In this document: positions 19,639 through 47,231 of the stretch, one piece after another
Layout: each line of letters opens with the position of its first letter
Position numbering within the stretch: position 1 is the stretch's first letter
IMG/VR virus record: IMGVR_UViG_3300043411_001314
Span: 32,001-96,000 of that record
Origin: a virus
Direction: 5' to 3' (one strand)
DNA length: 64,000 bases
Notes under the pieces: generated by a model
The model's database searches: none
What the model was told of the DNA's origin: nothing
The model's input: the letters and a program-made list of their open reading frames with translations, nothing else
Translations under genes and position numbers: made by a program

Positions 19639-20343
19639 GTGGATGTTTCACCAGAAGCGAAGCGGGTCGCACACGACCTTCTGATTGACCTGACGGGTGA
19701 TCATCCAGCCGATTGCGTCATCTGCGCGACGGCCAACCACGATCTAGGAGACGCCCACGTGGCCGAGATCACCGAAGCTGACGTCACCGCCGCGGTGGCC
19801 AAGGCCGTAGCAGACAAGGAAGCCGAGTTCCAGGCGCAGATCTCCGATCTCCAAGCCAAGCTCGACTCCCGCGAGACCGAGTCCAAGGTTGCCGACCTTC
19901 AACGGCAGCTTGACGCCGAGGCGATCGCCCGCAAGGCCGCCGAGGATCAGCTCAACGACACCGTCGCCTTCCTGAGCGCCGAGCATGTCCGCCTCGAGGA
20001 TGAGGCTCGCATCGAGGCCGCCAAGGCCGAGCGTGTCCAGGCCGTCCGCGACCTGGACCTCTTCCCCGAGGATCAGCTCGAGGGTCGCATCGAGGCGAAC
20101 GCCGACCGCTGGGCGGCCATGGACGCCGACCAGTGGGGTGAGCAGCTCGCCGACTACCAGGCCGTGAAGGCCCGGATCGTCGACGCCCTGGGCGCCTCCC
20201 ACAACCCCGTCGGTGACGCCAAGGAGCCCGGGCAGTCCGCCCTCGGCGGCGCCGGCGTGAAGGACTCCAAGGACGACGGGGACTCCCGGAGCCTGGTGAC
20301 CGACATCATGTCCGACCGCTACGCCATCACCGGCAGAATCTGA
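19639..20343 (+). CDS. scaffolding protein
   Basis: Acidic coiled coil upstream of capsid genes. Confidence 0.7.
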   Translation: MDVSPEAKRVAHDLLIDLTGDHPADCVICATANHDLGDAHVAEITEADVTAAVAKAVADKEAEFQAQISDLQAKLDSRETESKVADLQRQLDAEAIARKAAEDQLNDTVAFLSAEHVRLEDEARIEAAKAERVQAVRDLDLFPEDQLEGRIEANADRWAAMDADQWGEQLADYQAVKARIVDALGASHNPVGDAKEPGQSALGGAGVKDSKDDGDSRSLVTDIMSDRYAITGRI

Positions 20344-20356
20344 AAGGCCAAGTTCG

Positions 20357-20917
20357 ATGAGCTCCCTTGGACGCAACTTCTCGTTCCTCCAGTCGCCGCT
20401 GCCCGAGCACCGTCTCGGCCGGTACAAGACTGGCGCAACCGTCTTCCCGCAGGGCGCGCCCGTGGTCGCCACCGGCGCCATGGACACCGCCGACAAGCGT
20501 CGCACCGTGGCCCTGGCTGCGGCTGACGCTGACGTCGCCACCGTCACCGGTGGCCTCGGCGGCATCCTCGTGTGGGATGAGGCATGGACCAACTTCCACG
20601 GCTACGACCCGGTGCTGACCACGGCTTCGGACATCGACACCGTTCCCACCTACACGCCCGCTCAGGTCGTGCACGGCACCGAGGTCCGGGTCCAGTTCCG
20701 CAACACCATCGACCGATCGTTCCTGGGCCTCCGGGACTACGACGGCCGGACCATCATCAACCTCACCAGCATGGTGCTCGGTGACTACCTCACGCCCGGT
20801 GCCGGCGACGACACCAACGGCTACTGGAAGCGGACCACCACCGCCGGTGATGGTTGGCTTCGTGTTACCGCAATCGACACCACCAACGGGCTCGTCGAAG
20901 CCCAGATGCTCTTCTGA
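20357..20917 (+). CDS. head decoration / minor capsid protein
   Basis: Between scaffold and major capsid; beta-rich, GDYLTPG. Confidence 0.6.
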   Translation: MSSLGRNFSFLQSPLPEHRLGRYKTGATVFPQGAPVVATGAMDTADKRRTVALAAADADVATVTGGLGGILVWDEAWTNFHGYDPVLTTASDIDTVPTYTPAQVVHGTEVRVQFRNTIDRSFLGLRDYDGRTIINLTSMVLGDYLTPGAGDDTNGYWKRTTTAGDGWLRVTAIDTTNGLVEAQMLF

Positions 20918-20931
20918 GAGGGGAGAACACA

Positions 20932-21867
20932 ATGGGCAGCATCCGACAGATCGGATACAAGGATTTCGGCGGCAAGAACGCCGAACTCGCGCAGAAGATT
21001 GCGATCCTGGACGCCGAGGCTCGCGAGAACTGGTACAACGACGAGTGGCGTGCCGAGCACATCCACGACGTCCAGACCACCATCTTCGAGGGCTTCACCC
21101 ACGAGAGCCTCCTGGGCCTCATGTCGACGGTCGAGACCGTCGACGAGGGCGAGCGCATCGTCATCGAAGAGGTCCGGGGCCTGAAGGTCTGGTTCGTGTC
21201 CGCTGGTGGTCAGATCGACGAGTCGACCATCACCAGCGAGTCGGCCGAGCTTCGCCGGGACTTCGTGGGCTACCACGTCAACGAGCGCACCGAGAAGATC
21301 CGCTCCGGGTTCTCCCGGCAGATGGCGACCATGGCGACGCTGGCGATCAGCCAGATGGACGCCGCCATCAACCAGCGTCTCCTCGGGGCCTTCCAGGCCG
21401 CGATCGACAACGCCTCGCCGTACTACATCAGCGGCGCCGGTCTCTCCCTGCCGGCACTGAACACCGCCATCACCGAGGTCGTCGATGAGACCCTCGATGG
21501 TCCGGTGACGGTCGTCGGCCGTGGCACCATGGTCGACCAGATCGTGAACGAACTCCAAGACCTGAACGGGTTCACCCCCGCCAGCAACGAGGAGATCCTT
21601 CGCACCGGCCGGCTCGGTGAGTACCGGGGCACCAACATCGTCCGCCTGAAGAACCACAAGGATGCCGACGGCAACTCCTTCTTCCCGGACAACGAGATGT
21701 TCGTGCTCGGGGCCGACGCCTCGAAGACGGGCTTCTGGGGTGGCATGCACTCCGCCGAGTGGACCACCCCCGAGGGCTTCTACACCAACATCCTCGGCGT
21801 GCGCACCTTCGGGTGTGCGGTCCACCACCCGGAGCGTGCTCGCCGGATCGTGGACACCTCGCTCTGA
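20932..21867 (+). CDS. major capsid protein
   Basis: 311 aa after scaffold/decoration, followed by strong terminator; C-terminal FGCAVHHPERARRI like HK97-fold capsids. Confidence 0.8.
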   Translation: MGSIRQIGYKDFGGKNAELAQKIAILDAEARENWYNDEWRAEHIHDVQTTIFEGFTHESLLGLMSTVETVDEGERIVIEEVRGLKVWFVSAGGQIDESTITSESAELRRDFVGYHVNERTEKIRSGFSRQMATMATLAISQMDAAINQRLLGAFQAAIDNASPYYISGAGLSLPALNTAITEVVDETLDGPVTVVGRGTMVDQIVNELQDLNGFTPASNEEILRTGRLGEYRGTNIVRLKNHKDADGNSFFPDNEMFVLGADASKTGFWGGMHSAEWTTPEGFYTNILGVRTFGCAVHHPERARRIVDTSL

Positions 21868-21890
21868 TCCCTCCCGGTCACGAGTGATGC

Positions 21891-21919
21891 AGAGGCCGGG
21901 CCTTCGGGGCCCGGCCTCT
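21891..21919 (+). terminator. intrinsic terminator
   Basis: AGAGGCCGGGCC-TTCGG-GGCCCGGCCTCT. Confidence 0.8.
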
Positions 21920-21927
21920 TCGCGTTG

Positions 21928-21955
21928 CGAATGACTGGATCGGATGGGCCGATAA
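21928..21955 (+). promoter_or_regulatory. putative late promoter (sigma28/WhiG-like)
   Basis: CGAA-N16-GCCGATAA. Confidence 0.6.
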
Positions 21956-22002
21956 CAGTTCGTAGACGCCGCGCCCCAGCGGCGTGATGGAAGGATGGAA
22001 TC

Positions 22003-22554
22003 ATGACTGTGGAACTGGAAACCTGGGTGAACGAGACCCGAGCGACGTGGCTGGTCAATCGGCTGAACCCCGATGGCACCACCCGCCAGGAGATGGTGCG
22101 TGGCAACGCCACGGTGATGCTCACCCCCCAGGAGCGTGAGCTCAACCAGTCGAACGCCAAGCCGGCGCTGGACCCGTTCCTGAACGGCACGTTCACCTGC
22201 CTCGCCGGCGACTCGGCACCGGAGAGCTCCAACCGCCTCACCGACGACGACATCGAGGAGCTCCTCTCGGGACACTGGAAGCGTGCGGCCAAGCGCCTCG
22301 AGGAGATCACCTCCGAGGCCGCCCTCACCCGTGTGCTCAACGTCGCCCTGGAGTCCGGCGCCGGCGCCAAGCGCATCGAGATGGTCCGCGACCGGATCCT
22401 GGAGATCAACCCCCGACGGGTGTTCCCCACCCAGTCCCGCTCGATCTCGCCGCAGTCTGAGCTGCAGGGCGTGGCCAAGCCGACCGACCTGATCCCCGAG
22501 CCCCCGAAGACGAACTTCCAGGAGCTCGCCGGCAACCTGATGGCGAACCTGTGA
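22003..22554 (+). CDS. hypothetical head-associated protein
   Basis: RBS GGAAGGA; position after capsid gene. Confidence 0.7.
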   Translation: MTVELETWVNETRATWLVNRLNPDGTTRQEMVRGNATVMLTPQERELNQSNAKPALDPFLNGTFTCLAGDSAPESSNRLTDDDIEELLSGHWKRAAKRLEEITSEAALTRVLNVALESGAGAKRIEMVRDRILEINPRRVFPTQSRSISPQSELQGVAKPTDLIPEPPKTNFQELAGNLMANL

Positions 22555-22587
22555 TGAGTGTCCCAGGGTTTGGAACGGAGATGTCCA

Positions 22588-23079
22588 GTGGAGATTGAGC
22601 TCCTCGTACCCAATCTGAAGAACTCCCTGAACGCCCCAGGCGAGGCGCTCTTCCAGGCGTCCGACAGTGAGTGGGTCGGGGCTCTGTCCAACGCGTTCTG
22701 GTGGGGCCGCATGAAGGGCTTCTTCACCGACTGGCGCACCGACACCGACGGCGAGAACATCGTCCCGGTGGTCGACGGCGGTGAAGAGATCCCGATGGAG
22801 CTCGCCCAGATCGTGGTGGCCATCGCCTCCCTCAACGCGCTCGAGGCCAAGCTCCTGTCCATGGAGACCAAGACCGTGGCCAAGGCCGGCCCCGTCGAGT
22901 ACGAGACCGGTCGGTCGGCCCAGGTGCTCACCGAGCTCCTCAAGCAGAAGCGCCGCGAGTTCGACGAGCTCAAGGCCGAGCTCGTCGGCTCCCGCTTCGC
23001 CATCTACGGCGGCATCATCGACATGGTGCTGAGCCGTGAAGGTGCCTACATGTCCGGCTACGCCTCCTTCGTGAACTGA
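22588..23079 (+). CDS. head-to-tail adaptor
   Basis: Position; KAGPVEYE motif. Confidence 0.55.
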   Translation: MEIELLVPNLKNSLNAPGEALFQASDSEWVGALSNAFWWGRMKGFFTDWRTDTDGENIVPVVDGGEEIPMELAQIVVAIASLNALEAKLLSMETKTVAKAGPVEYETGRSAQVLTELLKQKRREFDELKAELVGSRFAIYGGIIDMVLSREGAYMSGYASFVN

Positions 23080-23540
23080 TGGCCGGCGCCGACCCGAGGG
23101 GGTCCTTCAGCGGCGACGTGTTCAGGACGGCGATCCGTGCCGCCATGTCCATGGGGTCCCCGACGGTCGTCGAGGACCGAGCCACCTTCCACTTCGCCGA
23201 CGGCCGCACCTTCACCGTCGCCGATGACGCCGGCGACCCCTACGACTGGACTCTGGCCCCGGACGGCGGCCTGGCCGCCCGCGCCTCAGTGCAGGTGCTG
23301 TGCGCCATCGACACCAAGTCGGCCGTAGGTGCTCGAGGTCAGCCCCGTACGCCGGTCGGCGAGTTCGACGAGGACACAGCCACCCTCTACCTGTTCGAGG
23401 ACGAGTGGGCCCTAGTCTCCGACTTCACGTCAGTGGACCTGGGCGGCTCGACCTACGTCCGCATCAAGCGGCTCATCCCGCTTGGGCTCTTCGATGTTCA
23501 GGTGGAGCAGGTGCACGTCCGGGCGGTGGACGAGTCGTGA
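23079..23540 (+). CDS. head-to-tail stopper/connector
   Basis: Synteny, size, TGATG coupling. Confidence 0.5.
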   Translation: MAGADPRGSFSGDVFRTAIRAAMSMGSPTVVEDRATFHFADGRTFTVADDAGDPYDWTLAPDGGLAARASVQVLCAIDTKSAVGARGQPRTPVGEFDEDTATLYLFEDEWALVSDFTSVDLGGSTYVRIKRLIPLGLFDVQVEQVHVRAVDES

Positions 23541-24055
23541 GCACCTTCGAAGGTGGCCTCCTCGACCGGGTGGTGTTCGACTCGTTCGTGCACATGATCC
23601 GTGACTCCCTCAACCAGCTCGGCTGGTTCGACGTCGTGGACTCGGGGCGGACGCCCATCACCCTGATCACCACACCCGTGTCGCTCCATGACGAGATCCA
23701 GCCGAACACCATCGCCATCCAGTTCGAGGACCAGTTCGACGAGCCGGCCGAGATCGGCTCCAACCTGACGTTCGACAACACCATGGCCTGGGTGGAGATC
23801 TACCCGGAGTCCATGGCCATCGGGCGCCACATCGCCGGCGACGTGCGGGACATCCTGCGAGGCAAGATGCCGTCGATCGACCGGACGGACCCGAGCTTCG
23901 AGGTCCTCGACTTCCCTAGCGGCGTCGATCCGCCGGCAGTGCTCTTCCTGGCCGACATCTCCAAGGTGGAGGTCCATCGCGACCGGGAGCCCACCACCAC
24001 GGCAGGCCGGTTCTGGTTCGCTGTATCAGCGATTCTTGAGGAGGAGAGACCATGA
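23537..24055 (+). CDS. tail terminator-like protein
   Basis: Synteny; GTGA overlap; WVEIY..S.AIG..IAGDVRDIL. Confidence 0.5.
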   Translation: MSTFEGGLLDRVVFDSFVHMIRDSLNQLGWFDVVDSGRTPITLITTPVSLHDEIQPNTIAIQFEDQFDEPAEIGSNLTFDNTMAWVEIYPESMAIGRHIAGDVRDILRGKMPSIDRTDPSFEVLDFPSGVDPPAVLFLADISKVEVHRDREPTTTAGRFWFAVSAILEEERP

Positions 24056-24309
24056 CGGCGTTGGAGGATGTGACCGAGCTGGTTCGCCGACACCAGAAGC
24101 GGTGCGCCCGCACCATCCTGGAGGCCAAGGACGCCGGCGCCACCGACGACGTCCTGCGCAAGGTGGTGCTCGACGCCATCGGCGACTTCGCCGACCTCGT
24201 GGTGTCCGTGTTGCCATCAGTCACCCGCGAGGACATCATGCTGAACGGGTACGCACTGGAACTGCTCGAGCAGATCCACACCTCAGTGGGCGCGGCAGCG
24301 GAGTCCTGA
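24052..24309 (+). CDS. hypothetical protein
   Basis: Coupled ORF with RBS GAGGAG. Confidence 0.6.
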   Translation: MTALEDVTELVRRHQKRCARTILEAKDAGATDDVLRKVVLDAIGDFADLVVSVLPSVTREDIMLNGYALELLEQIHTSVGAAAES

Positions 24310-25250
24310 TGGCGAAGAAGGTGGCCCTCTCCAAGGGTCAGTTTCACGATCTCGTCCCCTTCGCGTCCGCCGCCCTCAACGACATAGCGGTACAGGGGTC
24401 CGGGTTCGCCGGATCACTCATCGCCACAGCGGTAGCGGAGACGGTCGACCAGTCGACCAGGGCGGTGGCCAAGCAGCTGGCCGAGGTGGCTCGCGTCATC
24501 AGTGAGGGCCTGGAGCCGGAGGAGTTCCGTAAGGCCCACCAACGGATCGGCGAGGCCGCCCAGAGGTCCGTGGTCGCCTCCTACAACGCCTCGAGGAACG
24601 GCCAGACGCGAGGCGCTTCCGGCTACCGCTCCGATGAGCGCTACTCCGGTGGCAAGCTGCTCGGCGCCTTGAACAGCCCGGACTTCTTCCGCGCCACAGC
24701 GGCGGGCCTGGAGTTCATCAACGTCGGCATGCTCAACGACCAGGCCGCCCAGTGGGCGCGCCTCAACTTCGGCGCCCAGCCCCGGGGCCGCGGTTCACGA
24801 CGTCAGTTCAGCGTGCAGGTCGGCCAGATGATCCTGGCGACCATCGGGTTCAACGAACCAGCGCGGCCCGGGTTCCTGCTGCCGAAGGGCTACTTCTGGA
24901 AGGACGGTCAGCCCGTCCGCCCAGGCCCCCCCACACCTGGGACGGAGTTCTACCTCGCCGGTACTGGTCCCCGGAAGGGGAAGGACCGGGTTCGGGGTGC
25001 CGCCGACGGCGAACGTGGCAGCTTCAACGCCATGGTCGGCCCGAAGCGTTCCCTCGGCATCGAGGCCCGGAACTTCCTGGATGCCGGCCTCTATACCATC
25101 GCTCATGAGATCGGCCCTGCCTACATCAAGATCGTCAACGACATGTACCGTCGCGGCGAGTCGACTGTTCGTCCGGCGCCCATCACCTTCAAGGTGCACA
25201 CGAATGCGACGTTCCGACGTTCGTCGACTTCAGGCTTGAAGTGGGACTGA
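24309..25250 (+). CDS. neck/tail completion-like protein
   Basis: WARLNFG and C-terminal GIEARNFLDAGL reminiscent of HK97 gp10-like proteins. Confidence 0.5.
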   Translation: MAKKVALSKGQFHDLVPFASAALNDIAVQGSGFAGSLIATAVAETVDQSTRAVAKQLAEVARVISEGLEPEEFRKAHQRIGEAAQRSVVASYNASRNGQTRGASGYRSDERYSGGKLLGALNSPDFFRATAAGLEFINVGMLNDQAAQWARLNFGAQPRGRGSRRQFSVQVGQMILATIGFNEPARPGFLLPKGYFWKDGQPVRPGPPTPGTEFYLAGTGPRKGKDRVRGAADGERGSFNAMVGPKRSLGIEARNFLDAGLYTIAHEIGPAYIKIVNDMYRRGESTVRPAPITFKVHTNATFRRSSTSGLKWD

Positions 25251-25253
25251 TCC

Positions 25254-25282
25254 TTGACTCACCACTGGGTGGTCTGTAGGAT
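25254..25282 (+). promoter_or_regulatory. sigma70-type promoter for leader peptide and tRNA-Pro/Trp
   Basis: TTGACT-N17-TAGGAT; spacer contains ACCAC-TGG-GTGGT palindrome. Confidence 0.75.
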
Positions 25283-25289
25283 TTCAACC

Positions 25290-25334
25290 GTGCGCACCAC
25301 CCTGCTCCCACCCGTCCCGCGATGGCGGGGCTGA
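25290..25334 (+). CDS. putative leader peptide MRTTLLPPVPRWRG (Pro/Trp sensing)
   Basis: GTG CGC ACC ACC CTG CTC CCA CCC GTC CCG CGA TGG CGG GGC TGA, 7 nt after the -10 box; shares 14 nt with the Ser leader. Confidence 0.7.
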   Translation: MRTTLLPPVPRWRG

Positions 25335-25370
25335 CGGCCTGATTGGTCGGTCACACCCCGCGCGAGTCTC

Positions 25371-25444
25371 CGGGGTGTGGTGTAGTGGTAGCACGGGTAG
25401 TTTGGGACTATCTGGTGGGGGTTCGATTCCCTCCACCCCGACCA
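25371..25444 (+). tRNA. tRNA-Pro(UGG)
   Basis: CGGGGTG...CACCCCG-A-CCA acceptor; GGTAG-TTTGGGA-CTATC anticodon arm; GGTTCGATTCC. Confidence 0.92.
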
Positions 25445-25463
25445 GCAGGCTTCATCCATTCCT

Positions 25464-25537
25464 ACGGGTGTAGCTCAGTGGTAGAGCAGCGGCTTCCAAT
25501 CCCGCCGGCGAGGGTTCGACTCCTTCCACCCGTGCCA
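25464..25537 (+). tRNA. tRNA-Trp(CCA)
   Basis: ACGGGTG...CACCCGT-G-CCA (A1-U72, G73); loop TTCCAAT; C31:C39 mismatch. Confidence 0.85.
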
Positions 25538-25546
25538 CGCAGGCGC

Positions 25547-25575
25547 TGAATGAACCCCCCTCCAGGGGCCGATGA
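25547..25575 (+). promoter_or_regulatory. putative late promoter (sigma28/WhiG-like)
   Basis: TGAA-N17-GCCGATGA before the major tail gene. Confidence 0.55.
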
Positions 25576-25616
25576 ACGTTCGTAACCAAGTTCGTTCACC
25601 AACCCTGGAGTGATCT

Positions 25617-27014
25617 GTGAGCGTCAAAGCAGGCAAGGTTCTTACTGTCGGCAACGGCTTCCTCGTGGATCGCCTCCAGTCGACCGGTGGGTCCGGCGTC
25701 AACTTCCCCGAGGAGAGAATCCTCGAAACCGGCAACGAGCTGGCGGTCGACACCGTCTCGGACACCCCGCAGGTGTCGATCGAGCTCGAGTCGCTGGACA
25801 CCACGGTCGAGACCGAGGCGATCCTGATCAACGTCGACGAGACCACGCTGTCCGACGGCGACATCATCGACCTCCGTGACGCCAAGCCGCTGGACATCGT
25901 GTCCCCGGTGAAGGGCGCCGGTACGTCGAAGGACACCGTGGCCGGCGTGATCTGGGGTCAGTGCCAGCTGGAGTCCGCCACCTGGCGGTACGGTGTTCGC
26001 CAGAACGCCACCCAGTCGTTCTCGCTGACCTCCGACTCCCAGTACATCGGCGTCTACACGCCGTACCGTCAGGAGTGGGCTGCGGCCGGCACCGGCCCGT
26101 ACGCCTTCACCAACACCGCCATCAAGACGGTGGAGAAGGGCTCGGACCTGTACGCCCTGGCCGTGTGCATCCATGAGTCGGACGGCACCTACACCCCGCT
26201 GTTCCATGGTGCGGACTACACCAACACCAACGCCGGGTTCACCCTCGTCTCCGCTGCACCCGGTGGCTCGACCGTGACCGCCTGCTACTTCTCGGCGACG
26301 GACACCACGTTCGCTCAGACCGTGCACCCGACCCCGTCGGTGAAGCCGGCGGCTGTGCGCGGCAAGGACATCGAGTTCTACCTCGGCGTTGGCCCGACCC
26401 GCGTCTTCACTGGGTCCACCACGAACGCTGACGCCACGCTGACGGCTGCTGGCGGTGCGTTCACCTCGGCTGACGTCGGGGCTCTCATCGAAGCGACTGG
26501 CGTCACCGCCGGCACCACCATCGCGTCGGTGACCAACTCGACCACCGTGGAGCTCTCAGCCAACGCCACCGCCACCGGCAGCGTCGATGTCACCCTTCGG
26601 CCACCGCTGGTGTGGTGGAGAGGCGTCCAGTCGGTGGACGTCTCCTGGCGTGTCCAGATGGAGCGTGAAGAGGAGCTCGGCAACCCACACAACGTGGCGT
26701 CGGACTACGACGTGCCTGAGGTCGGTGGCTCGATCACCATGCGCCCGTCCACCATCGACTACCTGGTGGAGAAGGCAGCGCAGATCGCCGGCGTGCCCAC
26801 CACGCAGATCTCGAACCTCCTCCAGTCTGCGCTCCTCGAGCTGCAGATCCGGATCAACCACCCGTCGACGGGCTCTCGCCTGAAGACCTTCCGCTGCCGT
26901 GACGCCCGTGTGCGTCCGCCGGCGTTCGGTGCCCGGGTGAACCAGAAGGTGGAGCCGCAGTTCCAGTGGACCTCGGCTTCCGGCGACCTGGAGATCATCA
27001 AGGGCGCCCCGTAA
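25617..27014 (+). CDS. major tail protein
   Basis: Thr-rich 465 aa upstream of chaperones and tape measure; followed by hairpin. Confidence 0.75.
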   Translation: MSVKAGKVLTVGNGFLVDRLQSTGGSGVNFPEERILETGNELAVDTVSDTPQVSIELESLDTTVETEAILINVDETTLSDGDIIDLRDAKPLDIVSPVKGAGTSKDTVAGVIWGQCQLESATWRYGVRQNATQSFSLTSDSQYIGVYTPYRQEWAAAGTGPYAFTNTAIKTVEKGSDLYALAVCIHESDGTYTPLFHGADYTNTNAGFTLVSAAPGGSTVTACYFSATDTTFAQTVHPTPSVKPAAVRGKDIEFYLGVGPTRVFTGSTTNADATLTAAGGAFTSADVGALIEATGVTAGTTIASVTNSTTVELSANATATGSVDVTLRPPLVWWRGVQSVDVSWRVQMEREEELGNPHNVASDYDVPEVGGSITMRPSTIDYLVEKAAQIAGVPTTQISNLLQSALLELQIRINHPSTGSRLKTFRCRDARVRPPAFGARVNQKVEPQFQWTSASGDLEIIKGAP

Positions 27015-27021
27015 TCGAGGC

Positions 27022-27060
27022 GGGGGCGATGCCGTAGGCAGGGGACACGGCATCGCCCCC
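27022..27060 (+). terminator. stem-loop after major tail gene
   Basis: GGGGGCGATGCCGT-N11-ACGGCATCGCCCCC, no U-tract. Confidence 0.6.
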
Positions 27061-27107
27061 GACGGTGGCCAGCATTTCGAAGGAACAACGGAAGGACAAG
27101 GATCAAC

Positions 27108-27971
27108 ATGCGCCTCAGCGACATGTACAAGACCAGTGAGGAAGTCACGTTCATGCAGGGGTCCGACGCCGAAGAGACGGTGGCGGTCGTCAAGCTGAAC
27201 GAGCCGGAGCAGGCCACCTTGGCCCGCAAAGCCGGTGCCGCCCGAGCCCGGGCCATCGCCGAGCTCCGAGACCCGGAGTCGGATCTCTCACTGGAGCTTC
27301 GGATGGTCCTCGTCGGCATGACCGAGGACGAGTTGATCTCCCAGATCATCGACGAGGATCTCGAGCAGAAGCTCCTGTCGGTCCACGAGGAGCTCGCCGC
27401 ATCGGATGAGTGGTCGACTGACGACTACCTCCACGGCCTCGAGGAGGCGTGGAACGGCTCGGCCGACGAGCCTGGCCTCAAGGTCACCGGCGCCGACACC
27501 GAAGAGGGCCAGCGGGTCCTCAACGAGTTGTCCCGCTTCCACACCAAGGTAGGGGAGCTCATCGCTGCTGAGCGGGCGGATCTCCGCGCTGGGTTCGAGG
27601 GGCTCGACATGGAGTTCCTCCTCGACAAGGCGTACGCAGCCTGCGTGAAGCGCAAGGCCGACCAGGTGTTCATGGACGAGTACGTCCGCCGGCGCACCTA
27701 CATGTCGACCCGTGTCGGATCCGCCCCCGAGGATCGCCGCAAGTACTACTTCGACTCGATCGAGGACTACGACGACTGCGATGAGCTGATGATCAAGCAG
27801 CGGTTGATGAAGGCGTACGCCGAGATGGCCGTGGAGGGTGTGGAGGGAAAAGAATCGCCGGGTCACCCCGGTTCCTCGCCCTCGTCCGAAGCTCCCGCCA
27901 CGGAGCCGGTGTCGGCTCGCTCCGCCCGTCCGGCTGCGAAGCGTTCGAAGACGTCCCGAGCGAGTGGGTAA
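27108..27971 (+). CDS. tail assembly chaperone (gpG-like)
   Basis: Between major tail and tape measure; contains G GGA AAA slippery site. Confidence 0.8.
   Translation: MRLSDMYKTSEEVTFMQGSDAEETVAVVKLNEPEQATLARKAGAARARAIAELRDPESDLSLELRMVLVGMTEDELISQIIDEDLEQKLLSVHEELAASDEWSTDDYLHGLEEAWNGSADEPGLKVTGADTEEGQRVLNELSRFHTKVGELIAAERADLRAGFEGLDMEFLLDKAYAACVKRKADQVFMDEYVRRRTYMSTRVGSAPEDRRKYYFDSIEDYDDCDELMIKQRLMKAYAEMAVEGVEGKESPGHPGSSPSSEAPATEPVSARSARPAAKRSKTSRASG
27845..27851 (+). other. programmed -1 frameshift site GGGAAAA
   Basis: -1 frame (GKRIAGSPRF...EWVMAVAH) is open and joins ORF 27971..28195. Confidence 0.85.
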
Positions 27972-28195
27972 TGGCCGTCGCCCACGCTGACCACATCCTG
28001 GAGCTCCAGGCGAACCTCGACGGCAAAGAGATGCCGCCGGAGTGGATGTGGACTCTGCCGTGGGAGATGGAGCGCCACATGAAGAAGGTGGTTGCCGCCC
28101 GCAAGGAGAAGTACGGGAAGGACGACGACGACGAGGACATGGAGGGGGAAGGCTGGACCCGCAATGAGATGATCCCTGACGCGTGGCGCGACTGA
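27971..28195 (+). CDS. C-terminal part of frameshifted chaperone (gpGT)
   Basis: MPPEWMW motif; in frame with the -1 product. Confidence 0.75.
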   Translation: MAVAHADHILELQANLDGKEMPPEWMWTLPWEMERHMKKVVAARKEKYGKDDDDEDMEGEGWTRNEMIPDAWRD

Positions 28196-28207
28196 GAGGT
28201 GTGAGCA

Positions 28208-31200
28208 GTGGAGACTTACAAGCTGAACTTCAAGGTCGGGATCGACAAGACCGACGTCACCGCGTTCATCAGGGACATGAATCGTGCCGCCGCCGAGGCG
28301 TCATCTTCCATCGCCAAGGCTGCTTCCGGCGCCCAGGCGAAGGTGGGCGCCGGAGCTCCTGGCGCTGTAGCCACCCGGGGTATTGCCGACATCGAAGGTC
28401 AGCTGCGCGGCAGGGTTGGCTTGGCCGAGCGGTCCGGCCTGTTCTCCACCGGCCAAATACGGGACCTTCAGGGTGCCGTCAACGAGATCGTCCGACTTGC
28501 CAGGTCGGGGGTCCGCAAGGACGTCACCGCCGCTGGGCGCAACCTCACGTCCGACCTCGGTGCGTCGGGCGGTAAGGCGTACCGGTCGCGTGTCGGCGGC
28601 GTCGAGCAGTCGGTCTACCGTCGCGCCGAGGCCGAGGCCCAGGCCGCCGAGGCCGCCACTCAGGCCGCCGCCGAAGAGGGGCGACTGAACGCTTGGCGTA
28701 AGAACGCCCGGGCCCGCCTTCAGGGGTCCATCTCCACCGAGAACGCCGCCCGCGCCGAGTCGGCCAAGGCCGCCGAGCTCGAGGCCGCTGCCCGACTGAA
28801 GGAGGCCAATGAGGCGGAGAAGCAGGCCGCAGCGGCCAAGGCCAGGGCTGACAAGGCCCGCCCCATCTACGGCCCCCCGAAGCCGCCGAAAAGCGGGGTC
28901 GCCCCAGGTGTCGCCGCGGCCGAACGGCAGGCCAAGGAGCTCGCCGCTGCCCAGGCCAAGCTCGACAGGGAGCAGGCCAGGGCCCAGGCCAAGGCCGCCG
29001 CCGCCGCCTCTGAGCCGGAAGATGCCGTCCTGAAGAGGTTTGGTCTCCTCCCAGAGGGGGGGCTGGACTATTACTCCAAGGTGATGGGTGGCCCTGGCCC
29101 TGGCCTTGGTTGGGCTCGCCTCAACGCCGGACCCACGTCGGCGCTCGATCGCTACCGCGACCTGAACACCGGCATCGGCCGTAACGAGTTCGCGAACAAC
29201 ACCGTCCTCGATGGGGATGACAAGACCCTCGCCGAGATGTCGGCCGAGGCCCGCGCCAACCTGACCTCGCTTGAGCGGATGCGTCAGGCCACCGAGGAGC
29301 TGGCCAAGGCCGAGCAGTACCTGGCAGACCTCATGGGCCTGTCAAGCCGCGACATGTCCGGCAAGCTCCGCGCCGCCGCCGGGCCCGGTCGTCTGGCCGA
29401 ACTCCTGGAGCTCCGTGCGAAAAGGGAGGGGACCGCCGGGCTTCAAGACCTTGAGGGGTTTGAGGCCGCCGCCGACCAACGCCGGGCCAACGAGGTCAAG
29501 GAAGCCAAGAACAGGTACATCACCGACGACGACCTCGACGCCGCCGTCGGCGTGAAGGTGGAATCGGAGAGGCACACCAACGTCATCCGCGGCCGTGCCG
29601 CCGACGAGAAGCGCAGCAACCAGCGGCTGATCGAGGCCGACGCGGAACGAATCGTCGCGACCAACTTGGCATCCTCGGCTTCGAAGCGCATGGCTGCCGA
29701 CATGATGCGTGCGGCGGGGGTGGGACGCGAACGTGAGGCGACGCCGACGCAGCGTTTCCAGGCGTGGATCGCCAACCGCGGGGGCGGCGACAACCTGCCC
29801 CGCCCAGCCACCGACTTCATGCAGGGCAAGCAGCTGGCTGCTTCCCGCATCATGACCACCGCCTCCTTCGCCGCCTCTGGTGGCCTGCTGTACGGCGCCA
29901 TGAGCCTCGGGTCCGACATCATGCGGGAGTCGACCGAGCTCCAGGTCGAGCTCGGGATCATCGAGTCCCAGATCAACTCCCTGGACGCCACCGCCAACAA
30001 GGTGTCGCTCGAGAAGCTCCGCGACGAGCTCCACAAGACGTCCGTGGCGTCGGGTGTGGAGATGAACGAGGTTGCCAACGTCACCCGCCAGCTCGCCGGG
30101 GCATTCGCCGACCCGGAGACCGGGAACGCCAACTTCGCCCTCGCCCAGAAGGAGGCGGACGTCGCCCTGCGGTACTCGAAGATCTCTGGGATCCCCCAGC
30201 AGGAGATCACCGACTCCATGTCGGCCATCTCCCTGGCCTTCCGGGATGTCGACACCGACGTACCGCTTGGGTTCGAGCGGATTCTCGACACGGTCCTGGC
30301 GCTGGAGAACCGCTTCGGCGTTCTCAGCCCGGAGATCGTCAAGTTCACCGCCGATCTTGCCCCCCTCGGCAAGGAGCTCGGCTTCACCCAGGAGCAGCTG
30401 TCCGGCCTCGGCGCCGTCGCCCAGTCGCGGTCCGGGCGCTCCGGCACGGTGCTGTCCGAGCAGCTCGGCCGGATCCTGCCGTCCCTCCAGGACCAACAGA
30501 AGAAGCTGTATGAGCTGTTCAGCTTGAACGCAAACACCGAGGGTGCCGTTGGCGATCTGATGAAGGGGTTCTCGGAGGGTGACACCCCCGAGGTCCTGCG
30601 GACCCTGGTGAAGAACTACGACAAGTTGACGAAGGAGCAGCAGAACGAGATGGCGTCTCTCGTCGGCTCCCGCCGCGAGGCCGCCACCTTCTACGCCCTG
30701 TTGGATTCGCCGAAGCTGACCGAGGATGTCCTCAACGGGGACTTCGTCGCCGGCGGTGAGTTCGAGAATCGCTGGGACAGCTACGAGCAGACCGTCACCC
30801 TGTCAACCCAGCGGATGCGTCGGGCGGTAGAGGAGTTCGGCCAGAAGCTGTTCGACGCTGGCATCGACGACCTGTTGATCAAGGGTGCTCAGTTCGGCAC
30901 CGTCATAGCCGCCGCCCTGTCTGGCGCTGTCAGCTGGATGACCAAGCTGAACGACCTGATGGGTGGTCACCTGACCACGGTACTGCTCGCCGTGGGGGCG
31001 TGGAGAACCTTCGGGCCCTACGTCGCCAAGGCGGTGGCGGCGATGAAGGGATCAGCGGCCTTCGGCGGCCTCATGGGGCGGAGCGGAGCGGTTCCCGGGG
31101 CGGCCGGCCCCATGGTCGGAGCGGGGCCGTTCGGTGGCATGCTGTACGCCGCCCCCCCCGTCCAGGGCCCCCCCGCCCCGGGCACTCCTGGCGCCCCCCG

Positions 31201-33667
31201 CCAGCCCCTTCGTTCGAGAATCGGTGGCTCGGCCGTCCTGGGTCAACTGTCGACGGCCGTCGCCGGATATGCAGTCCTCGAGCTCGGCGCCGAGATCGAC
31301 GAGGTCAAGAAGCAAATCGACGTCGCCCGGACGGATCTTCGGTCCAAGATCGCCGAGGCGCTTGACAGCGGGGTGACCGAGGAGGAGCTGCGCCGGCGCA
31401 TCGACTCGGCACCCCAGTACGACTCCGGCCTCTTCACGGAGTGGAGCGGCATCTCGGGGATCAGCTCCGGGATCCCCCTGCCAAACGTCAAGAACATCAT
31501 CGGCAAGATCTTCGGCGTGAACACGGACGCCAAGGCACCTGGACTCGAGGAGTTGGAGGGGGAGCTGACGGCTCGGGCGGCCGAGCGGCAGGTTGCGGAA
31601 GGCCAGGCCCTCATCGACGCATTCAATGAGGCATTCTCCAGTTCCGGAGAGAATGGCCTCATCGCTTCATGGGAAAACCTTGGGTTCAAGATTGACCGGG
31701 ATAAGGATCGGCTCCCCCCGGAAGTGAAAGCTGCCCTAGCTCTCCCGGGGATGGACAAGGTCGGCATCGACAGCGGTTTCTCAATGGACAACCTTGTCCA
31801 GCTGCTACTGCTCAGGCAGCAGAATCCGGACCAGAAGATCTACCAGCAGCTTCTGGACTTCATCATCAACCAGGCAAGCATGGACCCAGAGCTGTTGAAG
31901 TTGATCAACGCGGCGACGTCGGCGTTCGATGACAAGACGGCCAAGGACGCGGCCTCAGCTGAGCTCGAGACCGAGGTTAGCGAAGCTCGTACGGCGTTCG
32001 AAACCGCCATGGGATCACTGGAGGCGGCGAACGAGGCCGGACGGGTGTCCGTGAAGCCACTGATGGACAGGATCGCTGAAGAGCGGGCGTTCTACGTGGA
32101 AATGATCAACCGAGCCCGCGACGCCGGCAATGAGGATTTGGTCAAAGAGTACGAGCAGATGATCTACGAGCTCGACTCCAAGGCCACGGACATCTTCACC
32201 TCGGACACCGACACCGGGTCCGACATCCGCTCGCGCCTCCTCGAGCTCTCCGGCGTAGGAAACTCGGATCCGGGTGGTACGAGAGTCGAGCAAGCGCAAG
32301 GTGCCTATGACCGGATTGCTGAGGCCCAGGGGATCCTTGTTAGCGCCAAGGCCGAGAAGGCCATGGAGGTCCTGGAGGCCCAGCAGGAAGATCTTGACCA
32401 GCAGATCGCCGACGCCACCGACCCGGCGGAACGAGACCGACTCCTGGCTGAGAAGATTCAGGTGTCGGATGCGATGCGTACCGATCTGGTGAGGTCTCAG
32501 CTCCAGTCGGATCGGCCGGCAGAGATCCGCGACATGGTCGTGGACGCGCTCCAGATCAAGGTGGAGGAGGCGGAGGCTCTGATTGCCCAGGCCATCATCG
32601 CCACCGACGAAATCAATGAGTCAATCCTGATGGCCGGCCTCGAAGCTCAGCGTCGTCAGCTCCAGGCGGCGATCAAGGCCCTGGGTCCTGCTGGGATCAT
32701 GCCGTGGAACAAGAAGGGCAGCAAGCTGAGGGCCAGACTGGAGGAGGTGTTGGCGGCGATCGAGGCCCTCGGGGAGCTCGACAACCCCAACGTCATCAGC
32801 GATCTCTCCGAACTCGGCGCCAAGGGTGGGGGTAAGAACGGCAAGGACACCGCGTCGGACGCCAACGCCAACGCCGAAGCCTACGGGGCCCTCCTGTCCG
32901 CTCAGCTGGCCCGGGATCCCGTGGCCCAGGCCCGTCAGAACCTGGCCAACGCCAACGCTGCCGTCGGCCGCGCCGACACCGAGGCCGCACGTCTCCAGGC
33001 CCTCGCCGGCCAGGTGTCGGCCCAGCACGCGCTCGAGGACGCGATGCAGGCCATGTGGGAGGCTCAGATCGACGTGGCCAACGCCATGTCCGAGTCGGTG
33101 GGTGATGTGGTGGCCGTGGCCAACCGCAACGCAGCAGTCGCCCAGGAGCGGCTGCGCATCGCCCAGTCGAACGGGACTGGCGGCGCCGAGATCTACGCGC
33201 TCCAGGCGGCGGCGATCCGGGCCCAGACGGAAGCGGTGGAGACGGCTCGCGGCGATCGCGTCGGGGACCTCGAGTACCTCTACGAGTTCGACAAGATCAC
33301 CGCCGAGCAGTTCATCAAGTCGCTCCAGGCGGAGCTCCTCCTCATTCCCGAGGCCAACAAGAACGCCCGCCGGGAGATCGAGCGGCGGATCAAGGCTCTG
33401 CGCGACGAGATGTCGTCGAACATGAGCATGAACATCCCGTCGGAGATCACCCTGCCGACGCTGTACGAGGCGCGCCGGCTCAACTCGAACCGCGGTTCGG
33501 GTGGCCCGGCCTGGGGCACCTACAGCCAGCTGCAGTCGATCGACAACAGGATCGTCACGATCAACGTGTTCGAGTCCGGGGACACCCGCCGCACCACCAG
33601 GGCGGTGTCCGAGGCCATGGACGCCTCGCCGAGGTCCGGGTCGTTTGCTACAGGGGAGTGGGTCTGA
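28208..33667 (+). CDS. tape measure protein
   Basis: 1819 aa, Ala-rich helical, after chaperones; TP901-like core (ELGFTQEQLSGLGA...SGRSGTVL). Confidence 0.92.
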   Translation: METYKLNFKVGIDKTDVTAFIRDMNRAAAEASSSIAKAASGAQAKVGAGAPGAVATRGIADIEGQLRGRVGLAERSGLFSTGQIRDLQGAVNEIVRLARSGVRKDVTAAGRNLTSDLGASGGKAYRSRVGGVEQSVYRRAEAEAQAAEAATQAAAEEGRLNAWRKNARARLQGSISTENAARAESAKAAELEAAARLKEANEAEKQAAAAKARADKARPIYGPPKPPKSGVAPGVAAAERQAKELAAAQAKLDREQARAQAKAAAAASEPEDAVLKRFGLLPEGGLDYYSKVMGGPGPGLGWARLNAGPTSALDRYRDLNTGIGRNEFANNTVLDGDDKTLAEMSAEARANLTSLERMRQATEELAKAEQYLADLMGLSSRDMSGKLRAAAGPGRLAELLELRAKREGTAGLQDLEGFEAAADQRRANEVKEAKNRYITDDDLDAAVGVKVESERHTNVIRGRAADEKRSNQRLIEADAERIVATNLASSASKRMAADMMRAAGVGREREATPTQRFQAWIANRGGGDNLPRPATDFMQGKQLAASRIMTTASFAASGGLLYGAMSLGSDIMRESTELQVELGIIESQINSLDATANKVSLEKLRDELHKTSVASGVEMNEVANVTRQLAGAFADPETGNANFALAQKEADVALRYSKISGIPQQEITDSMSAISLAFRDVDTDVPLGFERILDTVLALENRFGVLSPEIVKFTADLAPLGKELGFTQEQLSGLGAVAQSRSGRSGTVLSEQLGRILPSLQDQQKKLYELFSLNANTEGAVGDLMKGFSEGDTPEVLRTLVKNYDKLTKEQQNEMASLVGSRREAATFYALLDSPKLTEDVLNGDFVAGGEFENRWDSYEQTVTLSTQRMRRAVEEFGQKLFDAGIDDLLIKGAQFGTVIAAALSGAVSWMTKLNDLMGGHLTTVLLAVGAWRTFGPYVAKAVAAMKGSAAFGGLMGRSGAVPGAAGPMVGAGPFGGMLYAAPPVQGPPAPGTPGAPRQPLRSRIGGSAVLGQLSTAVAGYAVLELGAEIDEVKKQIDVARTDLRSKIAEALDSGVTEEELRRRIDSAPQYDSGLFTEWSGISGISSGIPLPNVKNIIGKIFGVNTDAKAPGLEELEGELTARAAERQVAEGQALIDAFNEAFSSSGENGLIASWENLGFKIDRDKDRLPPEVKAALALPGMDKVGIDSGFSMDNLVQLLLLRQQNPDQKIYQQLLDFIINQASMDPELLKLINAATSAFDDKTAKDAASAELETEVSEARTAFETAMGSLEAANEAGRVSVKPLMDRIAEERAFYVEMINRARDAGNEDLVKEYEQMIYELDSKATDIFTSDTDTGSDIRSRLLELSGVGNSDPGGTRVEQAQGAYDRIAEAQGILVSAKAEKAMEVLEAQQEDLDQQIADATDPAERDRLLAEKIQVSDAMRTDLVRSQLQSDRPAEIRDMVVDALQIKVEEAEALIAQAIIATDEINESILMAGLEAQRRQLQAAIKALGPAGIMPWNKKGSKLRARLEEVLAAIEALGELDNPNVISDLSELGAKGGGKNGKDTASDANANAEAYGALLSAQLARDPVAQARQNLANANAAVGRADTEAARLQALAGQVSAQHALEDAMQAMWEAQIDVANAMSESVGDVVAVANRNAAVAQERLRIAQSNGTGGAEIYALQAAAIRAQTEAVETARGDRVGDLEYLYEFDKITAEQFIKSLQAELLLIPEANKNARREIERRIKALRDEMSSNMSMNIPSEITLPTLYEARRLNSNRGSGGPAWGTYSQLQSIDNRIVTINVFESGDTRRTTRAVSEAMDASPRSGSFATGEWV

Positions 33668-40637: not shown

Positions 40638-40873
40638 TGCCGACTATCGACGACGTCTTCCCGCCCGAGCAGTGCTCGCCAGAGCCCGAACGGGCAGCCG
40701 ACCCTGAGGTCCTCGGCACCCGCCTGGCGATGGAGCGGGCAATCCACCTCTGCCCCCTCGGGGACGACTCGAAGACCCGCTGCTGCGGCGTCCTGATGTT
40801 CGAGCTGCCGCTCGACGACCGCATCACCATGGACCCCCACCGGGTCCGGTGCATGGTAAGGTCGTTCCCGTGA
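40637..40873 (+). CDS. hypothetical protein
   Basis: HLCP....T.CCG...ELP..DRIT.DP..V.C. Confidence 0.6.
   Translation: MPTIDDVFPPEQCSPEPERAADPEVLGTRLAMERAIHLCPLGDDSKTRCCGVLMFELPLDDRITMDPHRVRCMVRSFP
40854..40862 (+). promoter_or_regulatory. extended -10 promoter candidate for Ser leader
   Basis: TG-G-TAAGGT, 7 nt before GTG 40870 (same spacing as the Pro/Trp leader). Confidence 0.45.
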
Positions 40874-40911
40874 CCACCACCCTGCTCCGATCTTCATCGA
40901 GTAGCAGCTAG
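40870..40911 (+). CDS. putative leader peptide MTTTLLRSSSSSS (Ser sensing)
   Basis: GTG ACC ACC ACC CTG CTC CGA TCT TCA TCG AGT AGC AGC TAG. Confidence 0.75.
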   Translation: MTTTLLRSSSSSS

Positions 40912-40937
40912 CACCGCGGACCATTCCGCGGTGCCTT

Positions 40938-41020
40938 GGAGGGTGCCGCGGAATGGTCCGCAACCGGTCTCGAAAACCGGGGTGGTCGAAAGGCCAGGGG
41001 TTCGATCCCTCCACCTTCCG
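40938..41020 (+). tRNA. tRNA-Ser(CGA)
   Basis: GGAGGGT...ACCTTCC-G; CCGGT-CTCGAAA-ACCGG; long variable arm. Confidence 0.9.
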
Positions 41021-41024
41021 CCCT

Positions 41025-41113
41025 GGAGCGTTGACCGAGTAGGTAAGGTGCCGGGTTGCTAACCCGAGGTCAGCCGTCAGGCTGGGCAGGTTCGAACCCT
41101 GCACGCTCCGCCA
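41025..41113 (+). tRNA. tRNA-Ser(GCU)
   Basis: GGAGCGT...ACGCTCC-G-CCA; anticodon loop TTGCTAA; long variable arm. Confidence 0.9.
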
Positions 41114-47077: not shown

Positions 47078-47082
47078 TGAGG

Positions 47083-47155
47083 ATCCCGGGGACCGGATCG
47101 AACGGTCAACCGCTGCATCCAAAGTGCAGTGTTCTGCCAGTTGAACTACCCGGGA
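47083..47155 (-). tRNA. tRNA-Gln(UUG)
   Basis: Reverse complement TCCCGGG...CTGCA-CTTTGGA-TGCAG...GACCG-TTCGATC-CGGTC-CCCGGGA. Confidence 0.88.
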
Positions 47156-47231
47156 AGGGTGGGGGTGGGCGGGCCAGTCCCAGTCCAGCGCGAGATCAAC
47201 ATCGCGCGTGACTGGGCGCCCACCCCCAGAC

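Follow-up and report, generated by a model that had tools for sequence, protein, structure and literature searches.

A promoter, a short open reading frame and two tRNA genes

We analyzed a window of 64,000 nucleotides (bases 32001-96000 of a viral contig of 117.5 kb and 66.6% GC, IMG/VR record IMGVR_UViG_3300043411_001314; all positions below are those of the window unless another locus is named) and describe a Pro/Trp cassette on its plus strand. In it, a promoter and a very short open reading frame (ORF) with proline and tryptophan codons precede genes for tRNA-Pro and tRNA-Trp, and the RNA between the ORF and the first tRNA is complementary to the 5' strand of that tRNA. The features of the cassette, including the predicted helices, are as follows.

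25254..25282, plus strand: sigma-A/sigma-70-like promoter, TTGACT (25254-59), 17-nt spacer and TAGGAT (25277-82), matching 9 of 12 consensus positions
25290..25334, plus strand: leader ORF, probably leaderless and presumably translated, GTG to TGA, 14 codons, peptide MRTTLLPPVPRWRG
25309..25315, plus strand: possible second anti-acceptor, CACCCGT within the Pro codons, a perfect complement of tRNA-Trp nucleotides 1-7 (ACGGGTG)
25314..25331, plus strand: helix 1:2, GUCCCGC / GCGGGGC with loop GAUG, at the 3' end of the ORF (core CCCGC 25316-20 / GCGGG 25325-29)
25325..25361, plus strand: helix 2:3, GCGGGG (25325-30) with CCCCGC (25356-61), enclosing a hairpin at 25332-25353
25351..25380, plus strand: helix 3:4, leader UCACACCCCG (25351-60) with tRNA-Pro nucleotides 1-10, CGGGGUGUGG (25371-80)
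25371..25444, plus strand: tRNA-Pro(UGG), CCA encoded, called by ARAGORN; Rfam score 62.3 bits
25464..25537, plus strand: tRNA-Trp(CCA), CCA encoded, called by ARAGORN; Rfam score 61.3 bits

The promoter belongs to a rare type in this genome. In a promoter scan of 12 kb, 0.6 +/- 0.6 sigma-70-like sites were expected and two were found, one of them the Pro/Trp promoter; this promoter is also among the only three sites that fit the stricter pattern TTGACN-N16-18-TANNNT on both strands of the 117.5-kb genome. The gap between TAGGAT and the GTG start codon is 7 nt (TTCAACC). Across the genome, a TANNNT ending 6-7 nt upstream was found for 14 of 7,680 ATG or GTG triplets.

The leader frame reads GTG CGC ACC ACC CTG CTC CCA CCC GTC CCG CGA TGG CGG GGC TGA. 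Its Pro codons are CCA at 25308, CCC at 25311 and CCG at 25317, its Trp codon is TGG at 25323, and tRNA-Pro begins 36 nt after the stop codon (25332-25334). The ORF thus has the cognate codons typical of trpL- and hisL-type leaders, with three Pro codons and one Trp codon among 14 in front of tRNA-Pro and tRNA-Trp. An Rfam search of 25150-25650 (E <= 1) brought no family other than tRNA to threshold, leaving the leader outside known RNA families. The promoter, start and stop codons had been proposed in a first-pass annotation of the same DNA, together with the three overlapping helices and the use of tRNA-Pro nucleotides 1-10 as the fourth segment, and we read all of these in the sequence exactly where it had placed them. 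The arrangement supports the view that the cassette is a self-contained unit of promoter, putative leaderless ORF and tRNAs.

Modules of the same design in the window and in other phages

The window contains a second, paralogous module for serine.

40857..41113, plus strand: Ser module, with TAAGGT, 7 nt, GTG at 40870, MTTTLLRSSSSSS, stop at 40909-11, a hairpin and the tRNAs
40937-41023 and 41025-41113, plus strand: tRNA-Ser(cga) and tRNA-Ser(gct), behind the Ser leader

This leader reads GTG ACC ACC ACC CTG CTC CGA, then six Ser codons and TAG. The hairpin that follows contains 16 nt complementary to the 5' region of the tRNA-Ser, a match that none of 2,000 shuffles equalled. The Ser and Pro/Trp leaders have ACCACCCTGCTCC in common. 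A third exact copy of ACCACCCTGCTCC lies at 11678-11690 on the minus strand, in an apparent coding frame (…PTTLLPDG…) without promoter or start codon, and may reflect chance use of preferred codons.

We found ten such modules in six phages: the window phage (twice), Sparky, StAugustine, LinStu, and two uncultured relatives, G003 (137.5 kb) and G004. LinStu, of the Bxz1 group, was picked blind. The leaders in these phages and in L176, a relative of Sparky, precede the following tRNAs.

Sparky, MLIPGRRSSSTSR: Ser-Ser
Sparky, MTSARRRPWPWRYTAEG: Pro-Trp-Tyr
L176, the Sparky Pro-Trp-Tyr leader with T2S: Pro-Trp-Tyr
G003, MRFLCERQQRPEPLAAPLLRAWRYTWR: Pro-Gln-(HNH)-Tyr-Trp
G004, MRFGRHWRNSA: Arg(CCU)-Trp
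StAugustine, MSGRRWQLPQQRNY...: Trp-Asn-Gln-Lys-Lys
StAugustine, MRTRIIARPLVAPRRRYSRR, Shine-Dalgarno-led: Thr-Ile-Arg-Tyr
LinStu, MFARLSLSSSLRLS: Ser-Ser-Leu
LinStu, MFEIRPPEPRWRYQPSLGR: Pro-Trp-Tyr

The Pro-Trp-Tyr leader of another phage, Farewell, is identical to that of Sparky. Sparky, Farewell, StAugustine and LinStu infect Mycobacterium smegmatis.

The spacing of promoter and start codon recurs in these modules. A -10-like box lies 6-7 nt before the start in nine of the ten (eight TANNNT and, in G003, AAGGAT), that is, in eight of the nine modules other than the Pro/Trp module; for three modules the box was a condition of the filter that flagged them, and only the remaining ones are independent for this count. 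The leader ORF is also conserved above its surroundings. Between Sparky and L176, 1 of 54 positions differs in the leader ORF and 16 of 72 in the flanks (Fisher p 0.001), a comparison that supports purifying selection on the ORF.

Two further loci in Streptomyces phages are ambiguous and were not counted. In VieEnRose (L249 238-290) the frame AWRYLAPWGAGAIWRSW precedes a lone tRNA-Trp and has 4 Trp in 16 codons and the sequence W-R-Y; an in-frame start codon was not found. In Stella (L095 102-148), TAACCT, 7 nt and a GTG open MTTRTLVRVTR before an array of at least 14 tRNAs; the frame starts GTG ACC ACC like the window Ser leader and shows no obvious cognate bias.

Leader codons match the tRNAs behind them

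In the first eight modules, 20 of 21 cognate amino acids were present in the module's own leader, and LinStu added five of five, counted by eye. The true assignment of leaders to tRNA sets was matched by 2 of 40,320 label permutations of the eight modules, which is the minimum possible because the two Ser sets are identical, and by 1 of 1,000,000 random permutations of all ten. Six codon-density p-values combined by Fisher's method gave 1e-6. For the blind-picked LinStu Ser-Ser-Leu leader, none of 2,239 null ORFs reached its score.

The match extends to single codons. Among the homologous Pro-Trp(-Tyr) cassettes, the leaders of Sparky, L176, G003 and LinStu that precede a tRNA-Tyr read W-R-Y, whereas the window leader, which has no tRNA-Tyr behind it, reads W-R-G. 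Leu codons accumulate only in the Ser leader that precedes a tRNA-Leu, that of LinStu. The window Pro/Trp leader and LinStu have a CCGCGATGGCG block in common.

The pattern TANNNT-N7-GTG-NNN-ACCACCCTGCTC had 0 matches. CCCCG-N5-11-CGGGGTGTRG matched at least 119 stretches, and among the matches listed only one (L176) was a tRNA-Pro. The pattern TGGCGNTATACC-N30-60-TGTAGCNCAG matched three stretches, all from lineages already in the set. Comparison of the window module with phage records by blastn returned tRNA bodies only, as it did for the G003 and G004 modules, and a MAFFT alignment of four Pro-type modules was uninformative.

The leader RNA is complementary to the 5' strand of the first tRNA

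Three overlapping helices can be drawn between the 3' end of the ORF and the start of tRNA-Pro. Helix 1:2 was present in the centroid structure and in constrained folds. Helix 2:3, whose full segments are GCGGGGCTGAC (25325-35) and GTCACACCCCGC (25350-61), occupies part of the segment complementary to the acceptor strand (the anti-acceptor), and formed in the fold model once the acceptor stem was enforced and nucleotides 1-31/34 were masked. Helix 3:4, in DNA letters TCACACCCCG (25351-60) against tRNA-Pro nucleotides 1-10 CGGGGTGTGG, consists of nine Watson-Crick pairs and one G-U pair around a 10-nt loop (25361-70). Its 9-bp Watson-Crick part was equalled by 21 of 2,000 dinucleotide shuffles of the leader.

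We compared the pairing with natural controls. The duplex between the 30 nt upstream of a tRNA and its nucleotides 1-10 had a median of -12.2 kcal/mol for the 11 tRNAs that come first in a module and -7.0 kcal/mol for 75 control tRNAs, which were the other tRNAs from the same high-GC loci (Mann-Whitney p 1.8e-5). The duplex of the Pro/Trp module, at -18.7 kcal/mol, was the strongest of the 86. In G003 the 5' strand of tRNA-Pro differs (CAGGCU) and the leader has the matching AGCCUG; judged from these sequences, this is a compensatory pattern.

Variation among strains is consistent with these assignments. The cassette is retained in two strain variants known from other studies, with cognate codons and helix 3:4 stems unchanged; both differ in the helix 3:4 loop, at 25364 and 25365. 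In one of them, X9, a G>C change at 25350 only moves a bulge in helix 2:3.

Complements of later tRNAs were seen as well. The CACCCGT complement of tRNA-Trp was equalled by 145 of 3,000 shuffles, a weak and merely suggestive result. In Sparky, L176 and G003 the internal tRNA-Tyr is in each case preceded by a short complement of its own 5' strand (ACCCGC/GCGGGT and CCGACC/GGTCGG; L096 970-985, L176 8020-8039 and L222, minus strand). Later tRNAs of a module may therefore have gates of their own.

Modelled ribosome positions change the cost of folding the tRNA

A ribosome was represented in the folding models by masking all RNA as far as 10 nt beyond its A-site codon. For the Pro/Trp module, the acceptor-stem cost was 14.3 kcal/mol in free RNA. 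It fell to 5.4 kcal/mol when the ribosome occupied Pro codons 7-8 and was 13-19 kcal/mol for a ribosome at codon 10, the Trp codon or the stop codon (19.4 at the stop). None of 400 shuffled leaders reached this amplitude of 8.9 kcal/mol (null mean -2.4, sd 4.0, maximum 8.5).

Six modules of relatives switched on in the model, the probability of the acceptor stem, P(acceptor), rising from 0.00-0.16 in free RNA to 0.84-0.99 with the ribosome at early cognate codons. They differed in how far they switched off again. In the Pro-type modules (Sparky Pro, L176, G003 and LinStu Pro) P(acceptor) was 0.00-0.01 in free RNA and 0.00-0.15 with the ribosome at the stop codon. Sparky Ser started at 0.01 and rose alike, and dropped only to 0.30 at the stop; LinStu Ser had 0.16 in free RNA, about 0.9 when stalled and 0.70 at the stop, and so was mostly on.

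A proposed gauge of tRNA supply

Based on these results, we lean, by a little, toward the view that the leader is a gauge of tRNA supply that is read by ribosomes and gates the phage's own tRNA-Pro and tRNA-Trp. The phage would then probably make these tRNAs only when ribosomes read Pro and Trp codons slowly. The sequence elements, their recurrence in relatives and the statistics of that recurrence are established; from them we infer the start site, translation, the kinetic order of events and a readout through folding or processing and not termination, in the following way.

A host RNA polymerase of the sigma-A type would start at or beside the GTG, as the spacing of the -10 box suggests, and a 70S ribosome would translate the 14-codon leaderless ORF. 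If the ribosome reads through to the stop codon, or if there is no translation, segment 2 would be covered or paired with segment 1. The anti-acceptor (25351-60) would then seize nucleotides 1-10 of tRNA-Pro as they are transcribed; the resulting local hairpin of 10 bp would form before the 3' strand of the tRNA has been made and would leave a misfolded precursor that is poorly processed by RNase P or degraded. If charged tRNA-Pro is short, the ribosome would linger at the first Pro codons (25308-13) and cover segment 1, segments 2 and 3 would pair, the anti-acceptor would be tied up, and the tRNA could fold and mature. The result would be negative feedback on tRNA supply, which might benefit the phage when the host runs short of tRNAs or defence nucleases cut them.

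The same sensor could have a classical output, with helix 3:4 acting as a terminator or strong pause site unless helix 2:3 forms, and the misfolding of the tRNA being a side effect. The geometry of the three helices is that of trp-type attenuators, and for actinobacteria it has been proposed that hairpins can terminate transcription without a U-tract. Past 25380, however, no U-run follows helix 3:4 (the sequence continues GUGUAGUGGUAG), so the hairpin lacks the intrinsic terminator of trpL- and hisL-type attenuators, and a terminator scan of 20000-32000 found none at this site. The equivalents in Sparky, G003 and LinStu run directly into the D-arm of the tRNA, and mycobacterial RNA polymerase reportedly needs a U-tract. 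We consider this alternative unlikely; without a U-tract, classical intrinsic termination is improbable and control of folding or processing is the better guess.

Translation of the leader might instead shield a C-rich RNA from Rho or RNases, or unwind it, and so set a constitutive level of tRNA with no gauging of cognate codons. The stretch 25295-25320 is C-rich and G-poor, like a Rho loading site, and in Sparky Ser, window Ser and G004 the stop codon is adjacent to, or overlaps, the tRNA or a hairpin. This explanation leaves the match between leader codons and the identities of the downstream tRNAs unaccounted for, and we regard it as very improbable.

Evidence that weighs against a gauge

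Several observations count against a ribosome-read gauge of tRNA supply. The first concern the Pro/Trp module by itself. The Pro/Trp codon content of its ORF had a p of 0.097 or 0.039 against short ORFs of the same genome, and Pro codons come cheaply in a C-rich leader that has to pair with a G-rich acceptor strand; the ORF alone is barely meaningful, and the case rests on the comparison with relatives. When G-U pairs were allowed, the complement to the tRNA became an 11-bp run that 248 of 2,000 shuffles equalled, which is uninformative, and the overall folding energy was ordinary (z -1.35; 18 of 200 shuffles folded as well). Strain X9 has a T4I substitution in the leader peptide. Metatranscriptome contigs (X15 and X16) gave no coverage of the leader or of either tRNA, which is no verdict on expression.

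A second group comes from the folding models. The first-pass annotation had proposed that stalling at the first Pro codons favors helix 2:3 and frees the tRNA. The fall in acceptor-stem cost bears out the direction of this effect; the release itself did not follow in the model, and even with the ribosome at Pro codons 7 or 8 the helix 3:4 fold was favored by 4.9-5.4 kcal/mol, as it was in all modelled ribosome states of this module. Freeing the tRNA would therefore need kinetic (co-transcriptional) trapping or stabilization by tRNA tertiary structure. In addition, 98 of 100 shuffled leaders also abolished the acceptor stem (P(acceptor) <= 0.05), so that the default off state is largely an effect of composition in the model. 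Sensing of Trp through the late TGG codon, which had been put forward with less certainty, was not supported for tRNA-Pro, since stalling at the Trp codon predicted the off state in the simple model. For tRNA-Trp, only a long-range model was suggestive (P(acceptor) 0.00 in free RNA, 0.70-0.86 with the ribosome at codons 10 and 12, and 0.09 at the stop). The StAugustine Thr-Ile-Arg-Tyr module did not switch in the simple model, and G004 showed only a fall at the stop codon and had zero amplitude in the cost test.

Finally, the matching tests are not fully independent, because the choice of modules was made partly by eye and several of them are homologues. Many tRNA genes also do without such a leader. 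By our criteria, no leader ORF was found at two of the four credible tRNA clusters of the window phage (Gln-Arg and Thr(tgt)), in 14 other gaps of LinStu, or in Ichabod, Angelica, Girr and ResDef; the same was true of four tRNAs in G002, of Arg(cct) and sup(cta) in G003, and of the tRNA-Ile of L241 and the tRNA-Leu of L242.

Some of these points would favor a simpler account, in which an ordinary promoter is followed by a long 5' leader, the ORF senses nothing, and base composition, shared cassette ancestry or the needs of processing explain the codons and the pairing. The weak codon statistics of single modules, the shuffled leaders that misfold the tRNA equally often in silico, and the complement that is not unusual with G-U pairs all fit this account, as does the homology of several modules, which have WRY and CGATCATCGAGT blocks in common. 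It is at odds with both permutation tests, with the null-ORF result for the LinStu Ser-Ser-Leu leader, and with the way Tyr and Leu codons follow the presence of tRNA-Tyr and tRNA-Leu. Nor does it fit the distance of exactly 6-7 nt that nine of the ten modules keep between -10-like box and start codon, the conservation of the leader ORF above its flanks, or the duplex energies measured against 75 natural control tRNAs. We think it quite unlikely that this account is the right one.

We suggest with less assurance than for the Pro/Trp cassette itself, as a serious possibility, that phages of high-GC hosts carry switches of a general class. In these, a leaderless mini-gene would sense the speed at which ribosomes decode particular codons, the acceptor strand of a nascent tRNA would serve as the last segment, and control would act on folding and maturation by RNase P in place of transcription termination.

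The cassette appears to be inserted between two virion genes

The locus L026 was the nearest relative among the loci compared. Its homologue of the 465-amino-acid protein encoded downstream of the cassette is 84% identical. Two proteins from other contigs, P0001 and P0002, are 97% and 85% identical. The spacer between the two conserved virion genes is 366 nt in the window phage versus 77 nt, without a tRNA, in L026, which retains a block containing GCCGATGA directly before the downstream gene. In a scan of 60 related loci, no tRNA preceded the homologous gene, and a single locus had one behind it, on the opposite strand. The short spacer of L026 and these 60 loci support the conclusion that promoter, ORF and two tRNAs are a cassette of about 290 nt inserted between two conserved virion genes. 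The features downstream of the cassette are:

25568..25616, plus strand: conserved spacer with GCCGATGA, the same block as in L026, outside the inserted cassette and preceding the 465-amino-acid gene
25617-27014, plus strand: gene for the 465-amino-acid protein, GTG start, no Pfam or PHROG hit

Searches of Pfam and PHROGs with seven proteins neighboring the cassette came back empty, and the late tail operon in which the first-pass annotation had placed the unit is therefore a putative assignment. The sole match in a Protein Data Bank (PDB) profile search of the neighboring proteins was a domain of about 68 residues like that of a decoration protein; it comprises residues ~262-329 of the 465-amino-acid protein, aligned with 8eci, a phage decoration protein (E 8e-9). 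This part seems to be missing from shorter homologues, which have about 400 amino acids.

The window phage was present in sequencing runs from wastewater, sludge and freshwater. Contigs from two metatranscriptome runs are identical (0 differences) to the start of the 465-amino-acid gene, at 25597-25900; one of these RNA contigs starts at 25597, 20 nt before the GTG, and DNA carry-over is possible. Apart from this stretch, X15 and X16 matched only as foreign tRNA-Trp fragments. A scan of viral contigs with a single protein found no relative, and a scan of genome contigs found one phage-like contig in a metagenome-assembled genome, with no clue to a host.

Genes for HNH endonucleases lie within tRNA runs of two of the relatives: an HNH-like ORF in G003 (L222, minus strand, between tRNA-Gln and tRNA-Tyr) and the annotated gp169 HNH endonuclease in LinStu (L255 10980-11354). 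Their positions fit mobile tRNA cassettes. Spacers of the LinStu tRNA array (L255 8683-8933 and 10274-10391) contain T-arm-like fragments, GGTTCGAATCC and GGTTCGATTCC, that resemble decayed tRNAs.

Elsewhere in the window, the Gln-Arg pair (tRNA-Gln, 47081-47155) has a nearly perfect long hairpin, GGGGGTGGGCG…CGCCCACCCCC, upstream of it at ~47160-47230 on the minus strand, which ends a few bases short of the tRNA. A 96-nt "tRNA-Thr(agt)" called by ARAGORN at 60325-60420 on the plus strand lies in GC-rich, coding-looking sequence and was set aside as a probable false call.

Relation to known systems and implications

Leader peptides control transcription attenuators in enterobacterial amino-acid operons (trpL, hisL, pheL, thrL and ilvL). 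The logic proposed here is that of trp/his-type attenuation, with the tRNA's own 5' strand in the role of the fourth segment. Both systems have overlapping helices 1:2, 2:3 and 3:4, stalling at early codons favors helix 2:3 in the attenuators and is predicted to do so here, and leaders can be multivalent (Pro and Trp here, up to four amino acids in the relatives). The tRNA modules differ from trpL-type attenuators in yielding a tRNA in place of an mRNA and in drawing segment 4 from the 5' acceptor strand of that tRNA. They lack a U-tract, the likely readout is RNA folding or processing, and the start is predicted to be leaderless and not Shine-Dalgarno-led, in a unit that is phage-borne and appears to sit on a mobile cassette.

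T-box riboswitches bind uncharged tRNA directly, need no translation, and tune the expression of translation components to tRNA charging. The gauge would resemble them in adjusting translation components to the charging state of a specific tRNA. It differs in having a translated leader, and T-box features were absent from it (no Rfam match in 25150-25650, E <= 1). The genes for tRNAs themselves are usually treated as constitutive or as regulated by growth rate.

A parallel for the proposed readout is found in mycobacteria. Canestrari et al. (10.1101/834739) describe polycysteine leaderless small ORFs, the "Cys ribulon", at which a stalled ribosome blocks a duplex that sequesters a ribosome-binding site; the signal is cysteine supply and the targets are metabolic genes. 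The two designs are alike in a leaderless small ORF at the 5' end of the transcript and in structure-based control without a terminator (both predicted here), and the Sparky, StAugustine and LinStu modules are in phages of M. smegmatis. They differ in that the sequestered element here would be a tRNA acceptor strand and the signal the decoding of codons that belong to the downstream tRNAs.

A reason for a phage to want tRNAs on demand is suggested by passages of van den Berg et al. (eLife 2023, PMC10264068), which set the tRNAs of cluster C1 mycobacteriophages, including the group of LinStu, against depletion of host tRNAs. These passages concern anticodon-loop mutations and contain no leader ORF or regulation, and the word "promoter" occurs 0 times in the main text. 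Our literature search turned up no account of tRNA genes under the control of a leader peptide.

If the proposed gauge operates, phage tRNAs would gain a regulatory logic in which they are made only when decoding of their codons lags, and the phage could replenish just the tRNAs that are withheld by the host or destroyed by defence tRNases. Translation would in this case also direct how a non-coding RNA folds and is processed. The idea is directly testable because the same design is found in cultured phages of M. smegmatis (Sparky, Farewell, StAugustine, LinStu and the Bxz1 group), and, if true, it would bear on why phages carry tRNAs at all and on the arms race with host nucleases over tRNA depletion.

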